A stretch of 63,244 bases of DNA, the filler included, from Collodictyon triciliatum (taxonomy: Eukaryota): NCBI GenBank assembly GCA_043381765.1. It is 5 parts of 5 records of this genome, joined end to end, with 100 filler letters (N's around TTAATTAATTAA, not from the genome) between each part and the next. Parts side by side here need not be neighbours in the genome. Positions count along the whole stretch, not along the records: positions 11,534 to 30,472 come from JBHJMP010001323.1; 4 more parts are not named here. One strand, given 5' to 3'. Below the pieces are notes generated by a model, which did no database searches, had not been told where the DNA came from, and saw only the letters and a list, made by a program, of their open reading frames with translations. Below are positions 81 through 50,920 of the stretch, in pieces (position 1 is the first letter of the stretch; each line of letters begins with the position of its first letter). The translations under genes and the position numbers were made by a program.

Positions 81-3000
81 GATAATTGCGGGCTAAGCTG
101 CAAAATTCGGAAAATTACGTTTTATTTTTATTGTTTATCTTTCCCATACCGAGTTCGATTTTATGACAAAATTTACGACTAGTAAATCCGAACCATGAGA
201 TTCCTTTTTGCAAAGAAAATCACCCCTCTTCTTCAGAAAAAGGACCTTAAAGCAGCCTTCTTTTTTGTTTCATTTTTCAACAGAATGAAATGGTGCAAAG
301 GAAAGCCTTGATTCCATTAATGCACTTCTGCCAACGAGGACTTGTTGGGGCCCAGCATCAAGGTATGCGGGCTATTGCAAATCTGGCCGAGAATACTGCA
401 AATCAGGTTTATTTTTCATTTTTAAAGTAGTTTTCTTCCATTATTAGTCTCCAATATTCATCTTTCTTCAAGGACGAATTTGAAGCTCATTCTTTCCCTA
501 TCTACAAGGACAGGAATGTCCACGACAATTTTATGATTCATTTCCAAATCTATTTGTAGGTTGAGATGATCGATAAAGGGATATTACCTGTTGTGACAAA
601 GATGCTTTCGATGGATAACATAAAAATTCAGATTGAAGCGGCAAGAGCTATCGTATTTTTCAGCGCGAATAGTACACATCTATTCTCTTTTCTAATGAAA
701 TGTCACAACCTCACTCTATCCCTTATGCACTCTTCTAATGGCTGTGGCATTTAGAATCCAACAAGGCTCGTTTGCTGAAGACCAAAGTATTGAACCAATT
801 GTTAAGTATGGCTAAAACGACTCAGAGTTTGGACTTGAAACAATATCTCGACCTCGGAATTTGCAATCTAACGATGGGAGGTTAATATTGTTTTATTAAA
901 TTGATATAATTTTAAAACACAAACCCGGTTGAATAATCAAGACCTTCTTAATATAAACTGATGATAAGTTACCTTTTTTTTCTTCGGAAAAATTCAATCT
1001 GCAGACGATTTCTCAAATGTCGAGTTCGTGGGCATGCACGCCGATATTTTGATGAGTGGTGTCAATTCGTCTTCAATCGTGCACCAGCGCTGGGCTTTGA
1101 AAGTTCTTGGAGACCTAATGAACAATAGTAGGGGAGTTTTTTTTTTACTGTCTCGTTTTCGTTTTCATTTTTGTTTTCATTTTTGTTTTCATTTTTGTTT
1201 TCATTTTTGTTTTCATTTTTGTTTTCATTTTTGTTTTCATTTTTGTTTTCGTTTTCATTAGACCTGAAAAATCAAGAGAAAATCGTTGCTGCTGTTGGCT
1301 GGCTCAAGATTCTTGATTTTGCAAAGTCTGACGATGTGGAAATTCTTCGTGAAATTGCACGTTGTTTGGAGCATCTGACGACAAATAGTGAGTGTTCGCC
1401 CAAATAACGACATTCCCAAGCAAATCTTTAGAAAATTCATTGTGCGATCTACTCCAAAATGGCGAATTACTCAATACTCATTTACACTTCTCTTAATCCT
1501 AGACAAAGAAAATCAAACCATAATAGTCGAAAAGGGTGGATTAGACTCCATCACCGAAATGGCAAAGTCAAATGATAGGAAAGTGCAACAGAAGGCTGAA
1601 ATCGTACTATGTAACTTAGCTTTTAATGGTAAAGTCATATATATTATGGATTCTAATCGACTTTGTAGATACACGGGAATGCTGTTTAAATTTAAATCGA
1701 GAATACATGATATTTATTCATTATCTGGATGACCTAACTATGAGATATCGGATGTATTATATACCGCAGATGAAAACAGGGCAAGAATTTTGCAGGCTGG
1801 TGGGACAAGAGCTCTTATAGCCATCGCAAGGGTTGCAAAGTCAACTCCTCTTCAATTATGGGCAGCAACATGTCTCTCAGACTTTGCAGACAAAGGTTTC
1901 ATCATTCATCATGATCCAGGAGTATATCCCGATACACATATTTTGTTTTTATGTATATTTTGAAGTTCTTTCTCAATTTAAGCAATTAAGACCCTAACCT
2001 ATCAAATGTCTAGGAGAAACATTCTGCACTGAGATTACATCCCAATCCGGTTTATTTCCACTATTAAAGCTATCATCTCCTCAAATTGACCAATCAGTTC
2101 GCTTTCAAACAACGCGCTGCTTCGCTCGTCTCTCAACAATTAAGGGTAAATCATATGTGAATTCATTTTACTCGATTTAGATGTATAATATCGAATCTTT
2201 TATTTATCAAGGGAATATTCTTAACCTCTTCACCGGAATGTATCATCTTAAATCTGACTCTTTTTATTTATTATTTTCTATGGAAATAAATGTGTTTATT
2301 AATATCCATATATATTTCGTCTCAAACACCCAGAGACGCAAAGACAGATGAAAGAAGAGGAGGTTCTAGTGAGTACCCTGAGCCTGATTGATGAGTGGTT
2401 CTGCTCGCGCTCAACAGATACAGACGCCTCGCTCTTCAATATGATTAAGACGTTCTCTCATTTGTCTGAAAACGGTTGCCTTTTATTCTATTTCTATTTC
2501 TATTTCTATTTCTATTTCTATTTCTATTTCTATTTCTATTTCTATTTCTATTTCTATTTCTATTTCTATTTCTATTTCTATTTCTATTTCTATTTCTATT
2601 TCTATTTCTATTTCTATTTCTACTCTTAATTCATTCTTGGTCTTATTGGTTCATATTTTTTCTTGTATATTGAAATTTGCGGATATAACCCATTAGGTTT
2701 TATACATTAGAATTTATTCGAAAATCCAAAACAACAGTAATCGAGTAAATGAATGAATCTATATAGTTATTCAAGGATTAAGGCTGACTATTATTTCTTA
2801 ATAGACTTAAATAAACTCGATATTGGGGAAGAAAGCTACTTGAGTCTAATACTTCGCTTGCTCAACGGAAGTCTACCGCATGACTCATATCTCGACGTAC
2901 TGAGATGTGTGGTCAATATATCCACCTCATGTCAGTATTAACAATTGCTTTAGGAGCTCTTGTGACATGAATATCTTAACTATAATTATCAAACTAATGA

Positions 3001-23471: not shown

Positions 23472-24031
23472 TCACTCTTTCGACAAATGAGCGAGGGTAG
23501 ATGCCGAAAGTTCCCAATTTTGGCCATCAAACTTTTCAGTCTTGATAGACCTATCATATATTGGTGGAAAGTTATCGACTGTATTACACCACCATAAGGT
23601 AATCGGAAAATATGTTCAAGGGCGAGTTTGCAAAATGGATATAGTACATGACACAGCGTTTTGGATGTCGCCTCGTCGAATCTCTACCTGATATTTGTTT
23701 TTTCCAAACATCTTACATTCACATCAAATCCATCTGGATTTGATCTTGGGATATAAAACGGGCTAATACCGCAAACGCTACAAAACTTGTGTTGGGCGAC
23801 CCCAGTGTTGAACGTGTAGGTAGAAATTTTTTCCTGGCAAGAGTTCAAGTTGAAAGTAATGAATCAATAATTAGGTGCAAGTAAATGAATAAGCCAGTTT
23901 AAACTACTTCATTTGTTGGTACCTACTTGGCCTTGAACTAGTCGGAATCTCGACTTGGGAACAATCAAATGGAGGAATCTTTCATCATGGGTAATCCAAA
24001 TAATAAATAAATAAATATATAAATAAATATA

Positions 24032-24126
<95 letters not shown>

Positions 24127-24479
24127 ATACATAAATAAATACATAAATAAATACATAAAAACATAAAAACATAAATAAATACAAAAATAAATAAAAATGA
24201 ATTGATTTAATTAGAATATTTTATTTATGATGTAAGCTTACCCCTTCATGTCGCAAATGGAGCAGTTGCAAATTACTACGGATAATTCGCTTGGTGCTTC
24301 AACCTCGATCTGCACGGCGCCGCAGTGGCATCTGAATAAAAAAACACCCAACAAACATTCACTCAAGTGCCGCGCAGCTTTTGCAAGAAAAGAAACATAG
24401 TAAATTATGAAGTCGATGGAGACCTTCCTTTGTGGAGAACAAAATCTGCACTCGGACCGTCCGTTTCGCTGGCAGACAT
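23472..24479 (-). CDS. CENPV: CENP-V / GFA-family zinc-binding protein (5 exons)
   Basis: Spliced translation HKGRCHCGAVQIEV...CNCSICDMKGFLHLIVPKSRFRL...YTFNTGVAQHKFCSVCGISPFYIPRSNPDGFDVNVRCL...FDGQNWE. Confidence 0.88.
24001..24195. repeat. (AAAT)n microsatellite in CENP-V intron
   Basis: Seen directly. Confidence 0.95.
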
Positions 24480-24819
24480 ATCTTACAGACGCTACTCGAG
24501 TTGCGTGAGCCGTAATAACAAGCTAAAAGAAAAAAAAGAATTCAGAAAAAATCGTAGAAAATCTCTACAAAAGCAAAGGCAAATGGATTGCAGAAAAGAC
24601 TAAACACGAAGACGAGAGAGAAGAAAAACAAAGAGAAATAAAAAGAAAACAAAAGGAAGACAAAGTGCCTCCACAAGCCTTTCCACCGGCCCACCCAAGC
24701 GAACGACTGGGCAGTCACTTTGCGCTTTGATTTGTATTCTTTCCTTCGATAAATTTTGATCAGCCGGTGGATTTATTCGTATTCATACTGGAATGGGTAC
24801 ACCAACCTTTCGTTTGGTA

Positions 24820-26470
24820 ATCCTTTTCCGATTATTGGCCTATAATGCTTCATCGGACATTTTCTGCTCCAGTCTCCATACGCCAGTACAATATCCTTGC
24901 CAAATGTCTTCGATTCGCTCCATAAACAATTCTTCACCTCTTTTTGTATTTACATACTGCCTCCATATTATCTTTCGAAAAGTTACTTGTTCATAAAATC
25001 TGGAAAGTTCTATCTGGCATCTTGATTTCATAGATACATATTTTCGAATTTTTTCATAATCGACCGTGCATGAATTATGTTTACTCAGTTATGTCTCTAA
25101 ATCGATTAAAGATACTCTTGATTTCTCAAACCGCTGATTCTCTTCAATAGTAGTGTGACCAAAAGAAATAGCACTTTGTAAACCTGTTGCCATGCATATC
25201 CCAAAATCCTTGTATTTTTTCTTTCTCGCGCAAGAGTATTTTGTGATTTTTAAGAGATTTGCTATCATGTCTTGTTTGGTGTGCCGTGCAACGTAATTTC
25301 TTACCTGTCTCACACACCATGCAAACCAAATTAAACTTGCACGCATCCACTCCGACTATTTATTTTTTTTGTCGCTGATAAAGATAACTGCACTTCGGAA
25401 AATTCATATATATGAACATAATCTTGGGTTGTTTGATTATATTTGGATTTTGAATTTGAAATACCTTTCTTTTCAAACAATAATGACACTGCCAAGCCGT
25501 CTGTTTGTATCATGTATTTAAAATTGTAGTCTCTTTGATGAAAGACCTTCTTCATTTCAAAGAACTCATCCCATAGTGTCTCTTTGCGTCTTGATATATT
25601 CTTCATTAATAATGTTTTTCCAGATAATACTAATAGACCTATCAAACATGCAGTATCTGGAGCAATATGACATAGTATATTGGTAGTTCTTCTAGAGATT
25701 GGTTGAAACAGGTTGGTTCCAATGTCCTCAAAAATGCGACTCATGTAAATCAGAGATGGTATTGTACTTATTTGGATTGACTTTGACGTTATATTCGATA
25801 CCTTTTACAATATCGCTGGTAATGATGTGATGCAAATGTATTTAGTCCATCCTTTATATTGTTCTGGTATTTCGAGGTTTCTTGAAGATGACTTTTTTTT
25901 TATCTTTCTTAACTCTGCCTTTTTAATAGCTTCCGTAACATTCTCATCTTTAGGAATTGTTTGAGTTTATAAAGCGCAGTAACCTCTTTACAAAATGTTC
26001 CTTAATGTTATTATGATAAGCTGTTAGCATTTGCTTCGCCAAGTACGGTAGTACATGAGACAGTCCAACCAACGGAAAGCGTTCTTCTCGGGACGAAAGG
26101 AATTGAAAATCATAGAGATAAAAATCATCATATCATCTCATTTCTGGGTCTTTTAAACGTGCGGGTCTATATTGTGAAACTATTCCGACTGTCTTTAAAG
26201 TGTACAAAAAAAACATTTCATCGATTGTTGGTGGTTTTGATTTCAGTATGTAACATCTTGCAAACAGATAAGTGTCGGTGACCAAATTATGACACAATAA
26301 AACCATACCGTTGATTTTGTTATAGTCATCCGCATTCTTTACAATCGACTTTCGAGATGTTTTCACATTTCGATAGTATGGTTTTACAGACTTTAGATTT
26401 TCAGACTCAAGACGCTTTCTTTTCTTCACCTGAAAGTCTTTGTTTTACTTTTTCCTTTAGAAAACCATCG
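24820..26470 (-). pseudogene. Degraded Fanzor1 (eukaryotic TnpB-like RNA-guided nuclease), C-terminus deleted
   Basis: Joining frames gives VKTSRKSIV...LVTDTYLFARCYIL...YLAKQMLTAYHNNIKEHFVKRLLRFIN...YMIQTDGLAVSLLF...IVGVDACKFNLVCM (RuvC-I, D at 25345-25347)...LSRFYEQVTFRKIIWRQYVNTKRGEE...FGKDIVLAYGDWSRKCPMKHYRPIIGKGL. Several stops and frameshifts; no introns. Confidence 0.8.
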
Positions 26471-27177
26471 AGTTTTCAATTTTGATAAAACTTTAGTCAA
26501 TCAGTCAATTTAATAAAAATAAAAATAACTACATAAAATCGATTTATGTAATATTAAGCATCTACCGAGACTCTCAAAATGTGCGCGTTGTGGCAAACAA
26601 ACACACAAAGTTTTTTATAAGTGATTTGAGACAAAACGCTGAGAGCCGATTCGGCGAGTTCGAGAGGACGGCCGTATAGCCGTTGAAACTGAAAGTCAAC
26701 ATATCGGCTCCAACCAACATGATTACCACCGCAAGTGTGGACAGTATAGCTTTTTTGAAATGCATGTTTGGTGGCAGGTTCATAGGGTGGGTTCTGTATG
26801 GGCCAACGCAAGGGCTTTTTTGCAATTTTTGAATTTGTGAATTAATATTGCATAAATGGAAAATAAAATATAAATTGATTATAGGAATAGAATGAGATTA
26901 ATAAGTATTTTTTAAACCTTATTATACATTATACTAGTATATTATTCAGGTTGCTTCTTGGATTCATCAAAGCTCCTACTTTCGTCAACCCAGATTTAAT
27001 TTGATGGTTGTCATCGCATTAAATTGCATTATATTTATATGAGTACACTCTCGTTGTATAAAAAGTACTGTGTCTTGAAAGGGATAAAACGGAGTTCGTC
27101 ACAACCTTTGTAATGAGGTTTTTTTCCATTTACAGGCTGAATGAGACTTCAGAGAAAGAATGAAAAATGAAAAAGAA

Positions 27178-27331
27178 ACAAAAAAACAAACAACCAAACA
27201 AACAAACAAAAAAGAAACAAAAAAGAAACAAAAAAGAAACAAACAAACAAACAAACAAACAAACAAACAAACAAACAAACAAACAAACAAACAAACAAAC
27301 AAACAAACAAACAAACAAACAAACAAACAAA
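27178..27331. repeat. (AAAC)n microsatellite
   Basis: Seen directly. Confidence 0.95.
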
Positions 27332-27433
27332 CCGTTCACATTCACACTAATATCCATATCCTTTTATTTTGGCCGTATTGAACCAGCAAAAGCTTCAACA
27401 GCCACACTGGCAAGCAACAGGCGGGTGCGTGCT

Positions 27434-48249: not shown

Positions 48250-49294
48250 CAGGAATCAACTCCCGGCTAGCACAAGAGACCAGCATATCACCCATCACTG
48301 ACAAACTCATCCAAAGAGCAGATTGGCTTCATGAATGAAAGGAACATCGACACAGACATCTGGATTGTCAAAAACAAGGAGTACATGGAATATCAAGTAA
48401 GCGGGACACCCCGCACTACGATTTTCTACGACCTGGAGAAAGCATACGACTATGTGAACCACAAAGCACTGGAAACCATCCCACACAAAAGACGCTTCTG
48501 CACCGGACTCTCTGGCCTTATCAAGAAGCTGCACGACAATGCGACAGCGAGGGTACTCACGGCACACGGACCTACGGATGCAATTCAAAGACAGAGCGGG
48601 GTGTATCAAGGCTGCCCACTTGCACCACTGCTCTTCAACTTCGTCTCTGACTGCCTTGCAAACCACTTCCGAAACGAAAACAAGGTGCGCAACCAACTGC
48701 TACTCCAATATGCAGACGACACAGCATTCATCTTGCGGTCTCCCGTAGGCGCCACACTCGCCAACAAATACATGCAAGAATACACACGAGCTGTCGGTGG
48801 GAAAATCAACTATGACAAGACAGACGGAATTCTTTTTGGGTTTCAGGATGGACTTATGTTTCCAGGGAGCATTGTGTGGAAGTCACCGTCACATCCACTC
48901 AAGTATCTTGGTATCATATTCGGTCCACAATCGGATAGCAAATGGACAACCCCGGTTGAGGACATCAAGTTGAAAATATCAATGTGAAGCAACTTTCATC
49001 GCTCGGACGTGGGGAAAGTAAGGTTGTGGAACCAAGTGAAGTTCTTCAAGCAATAAAATTTCTTTAACAGCTTGCCGATTCATATCCGCTCTGTTCAGTA
49101 CTCTTACAAAAAGCCAATAGAACTTTCGACAATATTACAGGATACACACCATCACATGCCCAGCCTTGGCCATCCACACAACATATCGACCAGCTGCGCT
49201 TCCTGTCTATTAGACTCGGTGTCATCATGATGGCTGGCAAATCACAGCCAAAACCTCCATCATCTTGCACAAATTAAAAGGAACAATAAAAAAA
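48250..49294 (+). mobile_element. 5'-truncated, decayed non-LTR (L1/Tx1-like) retrotransposon reverse transcriptase
   Basis: EQIGFMNERNI, FYDLEKAYDYVNH, GVYQGCPLAPLLFN, QYADD, GGKINYDKT, KYLGI; in-frame TGA at 48985 where Trp is expected, followed by SDVGKVRLWN; possible A-tail near 49286-49294. Confidence 0.85.
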
Positions 49295-49732
49295 CTCCGC
49301 ATCACCAAAATCTTTCTATTGGTGATACTTTTTGCTAGCCTTTTTTTTTGACCTTGCCCGCAGCCATGTCAAGTTTGCCTGACTTATGTGTGATTCACAT
49401 CTTCTTGATTTTTGGTCCCGAATGGATTTTTTTTTTATCGCTGAAGGTGTTTTTGATGATTTACAATTTTTTTGGAGCAAAAGATTACCCTATATTTCTT
49501 ATGTAACACTCAACAGAATTCATTTTAAATATGTACACGTATGCGCGCATCCATTCATCCATCCATCCATGTTCTTTTATGAATTTTATTCCATTCGGAG
49601 GAGTGGCACAAGAAAAGAGCCAATCAAATGATATTTATTTATTCTATATATATAGAATAAATAAATATCAGTTTATTTCATCCTCAATTGTTTTCTGCGT
49701 TTTTTTACATATTATTATATCTAATTCAATAT

Positions 49733-50920
49733 ATGGATGACGAAATGGATATATTGAACAAGTATTACAATGCACCCAAGCACACCAATTCAGTTGCCGG
49801 ACTCTGGGCGCTCGTAAAAGAATTTGGAATAAAAAAAAAGACTGTCGAGGAATTTCTCAAACAACAGCCCGACTACCAAACTCTGCAAGCAAGAAAGTCA
49901 GAACGCAAACAAGCAACCATGATGCGATTCAAACCAGGGTACATTCAAATAGACACAATTGATGTCGACGGCCTGGAGTCAGAAGACGCAAAATATATCC
50001 TGACTTGTGTTGATGTATTCACGCGAAAGCTGTGGGCCTATCCACTGCTGGCAAATTCCAGCAAAGAAGTTTCAAAGCAATTAGAAAAGTTTATCAAGGA
50101 ATATAAACTAATCACAACCATTCAATCAGACAATGGAAAAGAATTTCAGGGTGAGGTCCCCAAACTTTTAGAAAGTAATAATATCAAGAGTGTGAAAAGT
50201 TCTCCAGGTAATCCAACAACCAACGCCTTTGTCGAAAGAGCCAATGGCACAATCAAGCGCGCACTCTACGGCTATCTGCAAAAGACTGGCAATGACCCAA
50301 TCCCCCATCTCAGAGAATTCACAGACTCTATTAATCTTGTCAAGAATGCAACAACAAATGTTGTGCCTGATGTTGCGGTTCTGCCAAAGTACCAGGAGCA
50401 AATTATCGAGAACCAAAAAAAATATGCAGGCAAAAAGAATCAGAATGCCGGCATGGACAAACCATTCCAACCTGGAGACAAAGTCAGAATACTTCTCGAG
50501 AAGACTGACCTGCCTGTGAATGTAAAACAAAAACTGAAAACTTCAAAGGGGTACTTGCCCCGTTGGAGTAATGAAATATATACAGTCATCAAAGAAAGCA
50601 AACCAACCAGCGAGTGGGCTGTGCCCTATGTCAAAGTCGAATCAACCAATGCCAAGATTGCCAAAACTAATTTCAAGCGCTCTGACTTGCTTCTGATCGA
50701 CGACACAGTCACCAAAGGCAAAACACATAAACCCAAAAAACAACTCGTCAAAGAATTTGCAGAGGAAGACGACTTGAATGAATTTTTAAAAGAAGCACAG
50801 CCTCGAAAAATGAAAGGGGCCTCTGGGTTAGAGGAAAAAGATTTATTCGTCTCTAAGGAGAAGATCGAAAGCCAGAAAAACGCTAGGGCGGCCAGATATG
50901 AGAAGAGACAAAAGAATTAA
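49733..50920 (+). CDS. Retroviral-type (rve, DDE) integrase of Polinton/Maverick type
   Basis: N-terminal ILNKYYNAP...VEEFLKQQPDYQ; catalytic QIDTID, YILTCVDVFTRK, IQSDNGKEF, NAFVERANGTIK; C-terminal FQPGDKVRI...KGYLPRWSNEIYTV. Confidence 0.93.
   Translation: MDDEMDILNKYYNAPKHTNSVAGLWALVKEFGIKKKTVEEFLKQQPDYQTLQARKSERKQATMMRFKPGYIQIDTIDVDGLESEDAKYILTCVDVFTRKLWAYPLLANSSKEVSKQLEKFIKEYKLITTIQSDNGKEFQGEVPKLLESNNIKSVKSSPGNPTTNAFVERANGTIKRALYGYLQKTGNDPIPHLREFTDSINLVKNATTNVVPDVAVLPKYQEQIIENQKKYAGKKNQNAGMDKPFQPGDKVRILLEKTDLPVNVKQKLKTSKGYLPRWSNEIYTVIKESKPTSEWAVPYVKVESTNAKIAKTNFKRSDLLLIDDTVTKGKTHKPKKQLVKEFAEEDDLNEFLKEAQPRKMKGASGLEEKDLFVSKEKIESQKNARAARYEKRQKN

Follow-up and report, generated by a model that had tools for sequence, protein, structure and literature searches.

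A very probable Fanzor1 pseudogene, decayed and cut short at its 3' end, in the Collodictyon triciliatum assembly

We analyzed a 63,244-nucleotide stretch of the Collodictyon triciliatum assembly GCA_043381765.1 (the window), in which parts of five records are joined by filler letters. Between positions 24773 and 26444, the minus strand encodes peptide fragments that are spread over three frames and can be joined collinearly. The segment from 24813 to 26429 (minus strand) is very probably a Fanzor1 pseudogene that is dead and truncated at its C-terminus. Its body, delimited by tblastn, frameshift-aware alignment, a family HMM and a breakpoint seen in contigs, corresponds approximately to residues 1-541 of P0002, a 648-aa protein. 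Fanzor1 proteins are omega-RNA-guided and transposon-borne, according to solved structures and the available portions of PMC10711439, PMC10530073 and PMC11423790.

Several conserved motifs can be read along the minus strand of this segment, and the residue assignments given here refer to P0002 and to A1, an alignment of 30 near-full-length family members. The position of the start codon (26427..26429) is occupied by GTG (Val), and M1 is invariant in A1. NNIKEHF (25992..26012) is a conserved motif that falls in helix 131-161 of the P0002 model, within a helical region (residues 33-237) that may represent the REC domain by analogy with solved Fanzor1 structures. Positions 25496..25504, within the sequence QTDGLAVSLLF, encode the TDG motif, of which T312 is invariant and D313 and G314 are nearly invariant in A1; according to the accessible text of PMC10711439, this motif characterizes the WED domain of Fanzor1. 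The RuvC-I motif GVDAC (25339..25353) keeps its catalytic Asp, which corresponds to D364 and is invariant in A1. Further along, FYEQ..FRK..W..Y begins at 24987-24998, and a YGDWS strand (24866..24880) lies at the canonical RuvC-II site and has Gly instead of the Glu (G521, invariant in A1), in agreement with the replacement of the canonical RuvC-II Glu in Fanzors that is described in the portion of PMC10530073 available to us. Homology to P0002 ends with GKGL (24818..24829), at residue 540. All of the motifs quoted in the earlier note, which had read them in several frames, are present here.

Downstream of the relic and on the same strand is a host gene of the GFA/CENP-V type (23684..24479), with short GT-AG introns and an ATG at 24479, ~330 bp past the Fanzor breakpoint. 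Its first exon encodes MSASETDGPSADFVLHKGR, which is joined to CHCGAVQ... in exon 2, and Pfam GFA matches two exons (E 2.6e-4 and 1.9e-3, each alone below the gathering score), consistent with the CENP-V gene that the earlier note had placed downstream of the relic. Further neighbors are also host-like and include LRR proteins and a POLQ-like helicase. Long microsatellites, (AAAT)n and (CAAA)n, are located on either side of the relic, at 24000-24200 and 27170-27335. GC content ranges from ~0.30 to 0.54 across the window, and the regions at 46-48 kb and 60-62 kb are GC-rich. At 49661-57173, 23 kb from the relic in the coordinates of the window (whose parts need not be neighbors in the genome), there is a cluster of intronless ORFs, long and intact, as is typical of an integrated polinton-like virus or virophage-like element; it includes an rve integrase (49661-50920, plus strand), a 775-aa DUF5906 primase-helicase (51623-53950, minus strand) and a Pox_A32-type packaging ATPase (54483-55211, minus strand), and assembly gaps at 55671-56424 and 57074-57173 mark where capsid genes might lie. 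Just upstream of this cluster, a reverse-transcriptase fragment (48271-48987, plus strand; RVT_1, E 1.3e-18) is probably a retroelement remnant.

The assignment to Fanzor1 was built up through relatives of the fragments. The longest open fragment (157 aa) served as the query of a first database search, which found three proteins, including the intact P0002; a second search, with the N-terminal fragment as the query, and later protein searches returned no relative nearer than P0002. Over the N-terminal 103 aa, P0002 and the window are 67% identical. P0002 matches the window in linked collinear segments (tblastn, E 2e-90), with nothing else significant in the 63 kb. In a frameshift-aware alignment, its residues 1-540 correspond to window positions 26429-24820; 317 of the 531 aligned positions (60%) are identical, and the 540 residues are spanned by 1610 nt with no intron-sized gaps. 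The fragments do join into a Fanzor1-like protein, as the earlier note had proposed. P0002 alone also matches the solved Fanzor1 chains GtFz1 (Guillardia theta), PpFz1 (Parasitella parasitica) and SpuFz1 (Spizellomyces punctatus) at E 2e-28 to 4e-23. Fanzor1 has reportedly been the subject of work by Bao and Jurka in 2013 and by Saito et al. in 2023.

A HMMER search for the wider family returned 3147 representative clusters at E<=1e-3, 537 of them at E<=1e-30, and the 30 proteins of A1 were hand-picked from the best 150 of the 3147. Searched against the PDB, the A1 profile matches SpuFz1 (E 1e-97), PpFz1 (1e-96) and GtFz1 (7e-69), the only PDB matches at E<=1e-3, and the match to SpuFz1 is nearly full-length (profile positions 3-606 against chain residues 398-1027). 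We also searched A1 against all stop-to-stop ORFs of the 63-kb window. Seven collinear ORFs of the locus matched (E 5e-33 to 2.4e-3) and together span profile positions 2-513 of 616; the best ORF outside the locus reached only E 0.09, such that the matches at the locus are far above chance. Single window fragments (157 aa and 58 aa) found no Fanzor chain in the PDB, the seven window fragments gave only noise against Pfam (E 0.09 or weaker), and P0001-P0003 matched no Pfam family at E<=0.1 in a Pfam copy that may lack the PF26935.1 model. P0001-P0003 carry a precomputed PF26935.1 label in the protein database. Because the single fragments match neither a Fanzor in the PDB nor a Pfam family, and P0002 has no Pfam match, the link between the window and Fanzor1, as judged by sequence comparison, is strong but transitive, running through P0002 and A1.

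The predicted structure of P0002 points in the same direction. In a Foldseek search with the AlphaFold model (pLDDT 83.5, pTM 0.81), the top matches are seven Fanzor1 chains (TM 0.62-0.75 by query length), and the model superposes on SpuFz1 with TM 0.75/0.80 (0.80 by target length). As modeled, P0002, the nearest intact relative of the window copy, would have the Fanzor1 fold, including the WED, expanded REC, RuvC and TNB domains. The profile or structural match to Fanzor on which the earlier note had staked its reading was found at both levels, with the family profile and with the predicted fold of the nearest intact relative.

Aligned with P0002, the window copy is interrupted throughout. 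There are six frameshifts (near 25964, 25840, 25763, 25369, 25224 and 24911) and three in-frame stops, all of them base-substitution stop codons (TGA at 26135, TAA at 25362 and TAA at 25091), and both the TAA at 25362 and the frameshift at 25369 sit just upstream of the RuvC-I motif GVDAC. Since the alignment contains no intron-sized gaps, these breaks represent lesions and not splicing. Assembly error may be responsible for individual frameshifts, but it does not explain the three substitution stops or the missing 107-residue C-terminus. The window copy has no intact open reading frame, and, based on the six frameshifts, the three stops and the GTG at the start position, we file it as a Fanzor1-derived pseudogene and not as a working member of the family.

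Nothing is left of the 3' end of the gene. D364 (RuvC-I), E555 and D604 are invariant in A1, and C565, C587 and C590 are nearly invariant; of these residues, the window copy extends to D364 only. According to the portion of PMC11423790 available, the catalytic Glu of Fanzors is located on a loop that connects the fifth strand to the TNB domain, with the third acidic residue on the helix that follows, and the positions of E555 (VNEFRTS) and D604 (RDFNSANN) in P0002 agree with this placement. The relic breaks off at approximately residue 541, 14 residues short of E555. The alternative RuvC-II Glu, the TNB zinc ribbon (CxxC...CxxC) and the RuvC-III Asp/Asn are all absent from the window copy, the RuvC-III Asp because D604 lies beyond the truncation. 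A1 profile positions 514-616 have no match anywhere in the window (best E 2.6), in line with the earlier note, which had described an abrupt stop with no catalytic Glu, zinc finger or RuvC-III downstream. One zinc-ribbon candidate, CKIC...CKSC at 24362-24541 (minus strand), was rejected: it scored E 5.8 by tblastn and E 2.6 with the profile, its spacing is not collinear, and it overlaps exon 1 and an intron of the GFA/CENP-V-type gene in another frame. The omega-RNA of Fanzor1 is encoded at or past the 3' end of the ORF, up to the right end of the transposon, and this region is absent as well: the relic has lost the 3' portion of the gene, and the window sequence below 24813 does not resemble that of other copies. 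Rfam gave no match in the window at the gathering threshold, and ARAGORN found no tRNAs.

The position of the truncation is defined by other copies. Five contig records from sequencing run X3 match the window down to 24813 and then depart into unlike sequence, which continues in the Fanzor frame: in the frame of the window, the consensus of the five records past 24813 reads KILSKRFETV (agreement 0.79), compared with KILSQRFETV in P0002. These data place the truncation at 24812/24813. On the window side, positions 24773..24812 (minus strand) form a non-homologous read-through tail that is not Fanzor-derived and consists of the last letter of an Asn codon followed by ERLVYPFQYEYE and a stop. With the Glu, the zinc ribbon, the third catalytic residue and the guide-RNA region lost, and nine frame breaks in what is left, the relic can provide no nuclease and no guide RNA, and it cannot move.

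Each of the 10 public sequencing runs listed holds a share of at most 0.09, and there is no RNA holder among them. We compared four of the runs with positions 24700-26500, using contigs only for X3. In X3, 278 contigs fall on this stretch, 19 of which are at least 99% alike, 77 are 95-99% alike, 100 are 90-95% alike and 82 are less than 90% alike, a spread that indicates a multi-copy family. At position 25091, all 17 covering contigs have C, which changes the TAA of the window to GAA. At 25965, one base is absent from one X2 contig and from six X3 contigs, which account for a depth of 89.9 of 116.9; at 25760 and at 25762, two contigs each are short of one base. These positions are frameshift sites in the window, and the state of the window is kept by part of the X3 depth at 25965 (27 of 116.9) and at 25760/25762. 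At least three of the nine lesions, those three that the comparison with other copies covered, as well as the truncation (the departure at 24813), are therefore not shared by those X3 contigs. X3 depth is nil at 24700-24760, indicating that the sequence past the breakpoint lies outside the repeat. Record 13 of X2 and record 22 of X4 are nearly identical to the window, with one mismatch each, and bear out the assembly over the stretches that they cover. The single-copy flanks at 24700-24794 and 26332-26482 are matched by contigs from X4 (a freshwater metagenome) and X2 (a wetland metagenome), each with one mismatch; such samples may therefore contain the source organism or a near relative.

Relatives of the protein are abundant in contigs that resemble giant-virus genomes. 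Scans of viral and metagenome contigs with P0002 alone found no locus. Scans with A3, an alignment of eight full-length proteins, identified at least 449 stretches in metagenome contigs and 287 in IMG/VR, confirmed by tblastn and 35-47% identical to P0002. Many of the IMG/VR contigs have GVMAG in their names, and one contig of 254,533 bases is present in both collections (as L042 and L124). In five long contigs, the neighboring ORFs include those for an RNR small chain, topoisomerase IA, Rpb5, XPG, rhodopsin and a 2-Cys adaptor domain, which we interpret as probable giant-virus gene content. Of 80 metagenome loci, 28 encode a DDE_3+HTH (IS630/Tc1-mariner-like) transposase upstream of Fanzor1, and in 26 of these it lies on the opposite strand. 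In many of the remaining 52 loci, the upstream flank is short. All three loci nearest to P0002 (L001, L012 and L042) have the transposase, for example at 4638-5678 in L042 and at 4645-5676 in L012, and eight of 20 extracted transposase matches contain stops. The L012 contig also carries a second, different TnpB-like ORF of 573 aa (155-1876, plus strand; Cas12f1-like TNB domain, E 2e-9), on the same giant-virus-like contig as the pair formed by Fanzor1 and the transposase.

No such transposase accompanies the relic. We found no DDE_3 remnant in the window (best tblastn E 1.7; best HMM E 0.039, over 26 residues on the unexpected strand) and no transposase domain in ORFs of at least 75 aa between 14.5 and 37.5 kb, and the earlier note was therefore correct that none is adjacent. 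A repeat search of 23.5-28 kb returned microsatellites and short, weak inverted pairs only, with no convincing TIR and no TSD.

Could the locus instead hold a gene that is intact or was recently active, with introns, programmed frameshifts or assembly errors mistaken for lesions and with C-terminal exons located elsewhere? Introns can occur in Fanzor genes, according to the part of PMC10530073 at hand, and the window comes from a draft assembly with 14 N gaps. The collinear alignment leaves no room for introns in the segment that is present, however, three of the lesions are substitution stops, no ORF in the 63-kb window matches the profile segment that would correspond to the C-terminal exons, and the near-identical X2 and X4 records support the assembly where they overlap it; we therefore regard this explanation as extremely unlikely. 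A dead gene could also have been exapted, for example if it now served the GFA/CENP-V-like gene as a promoter or as 5' regulatory DNA, or gave rise to a non-coding transcript. The breakpoint does border on the DNA upstream of a host gene that has the same orientation, but the decay is consistent with an absence of coding constraint and nothing at the locus matches Rfam, and we consider exaptation very unlikely.

The same evidence can be asked whether the relic descends from a different lineage of the TnpB superfamily, such as Fanzor2, an IS607 TnpB or a Cas12-like protein, and not from Fanzor1. The RuvC fold is common to all of these, and Foldseek does list Cas12, TnpB and Fanzor2 chains for the P0002 model, at E 6e-7 and weaker. 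These chains rank below the Fanzor1 chains, with TM <=0.32; the model gives a TM of 0.22 to Fanzor2 (9b0l) and of 0.22-0.23 to TnpB, as opposed to 0.62-0.75 to Fanzor1. Moreover, all three PDB chains found with the family profile at E<=1e-3 are Fanzor1, and no Fanzor2 or IS607 TnpB chain reached that threshold in the A1 search; the TDG motif, a Fanzor1 feature in the accessible text of PMC10711439, is present in the window. We give this possibility next to no probability.

A dead and truncated Fanzor1 copy is thus our preferred reading, and it suggests a history for the locus. The ancestral copy would have encoded an omega-RNA-guided RuvC endonuclease of ~650 aa, and, judged by its relatives, its vehicle was probably a Tc1/mariner-like (DDE_3) transposon. 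We infer that a deletion or rearrangement at 24812/24813 removed everything 3' of residue ~541, i.e., the last RuvC strand and the catalytic Glu, the zinc ribbon (TNB), the helix with the RuvC-III Asp and the omega-RNA/right-end region, and that the remaining 1.6 kb would then have decayed neutrally, acquiring six frameshifts and three stops and changing its ATG to GTG.

Any genome in which Fanzors have been mobile can be expected to contain dead copies. The relic itself, a broken copy of a known family, is an ordinary genomic fossil whose worth lies in what it points to: a Fanzor1 lineage once colonized the source eukaryote, and the wider family of this lineage is very common in freshwater giant-virus genomes, often beside a transposase of the IS630/Tc1-mariner type. 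A more tentative proposal, which we think possible but do not favor, is that the relic marks a Fanzor1 lineage of which multiple copies, perhaps active ones, still exist in the organism or a close relative, and which has perhaps been exchanged with giant viruses. The 278 related X3 contigs, some of which do not have the lesions of the window, are the basis for the first part, and the abundance of the family on DDE_3 transposons in giant-virus MAGs, along with the polinton/virophage-like element 23 kb away, is the basis for the second. The suggestion in the earlier note that intact copies elsewhere in this genome could be new nucleases has indirect support at most, from those X3 contigs and from the occurrence in public data of P0002, an intact relative with ~60% identity. 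If the proposal is true, intact P0002-like copies (~648 aa) would be candidate programmable nucleases, and transposon traffic between viruses and their hosts would have left its footprint at this locus.

Among characterized systems, SpuFz1 (PDB 8gkh, 9ceu-9cez) is the closest point of comparison. It resembles the P0002 family in its near full-length alignment to the profile, in the superposition of the P0002 model and, based on the available part of PMC11423790, in a common D-E-D RuvC triad with the Glu on a loop before the TNB domain, whereas the identity between SpuFz1 and P0002 is only 19-20% in the structural alignment. Unlike SpuFz1, the window copy is a pseudogene; it stops short of the Glu and lacks the TNB domain, RuvC-III and the omega-RNA. 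The nearest intact relatives of the window copy are the 648-aa proteins of the P0002/P0005 cluster, which come from public assemblies. P0002 shares with the window an insertion of ~33 residues after the RuvC-I region that P0007 and P0010 do not have, and it differs from the window copy in being intact, with E555, the CxxC..CxxC pairs and RDFNSANN. Decay appears to be common in this lineage, as P0001, P0003 and P0006 are truncated or frame-broken gene models (291, 331 and 352 aa). The Fanzor1 copies of giant-virus MAGs are full-length and intronless, whereas the relic, devoid of any transposase remnant, lies between intron-bearing host genes, yet both belong to the same protein family.
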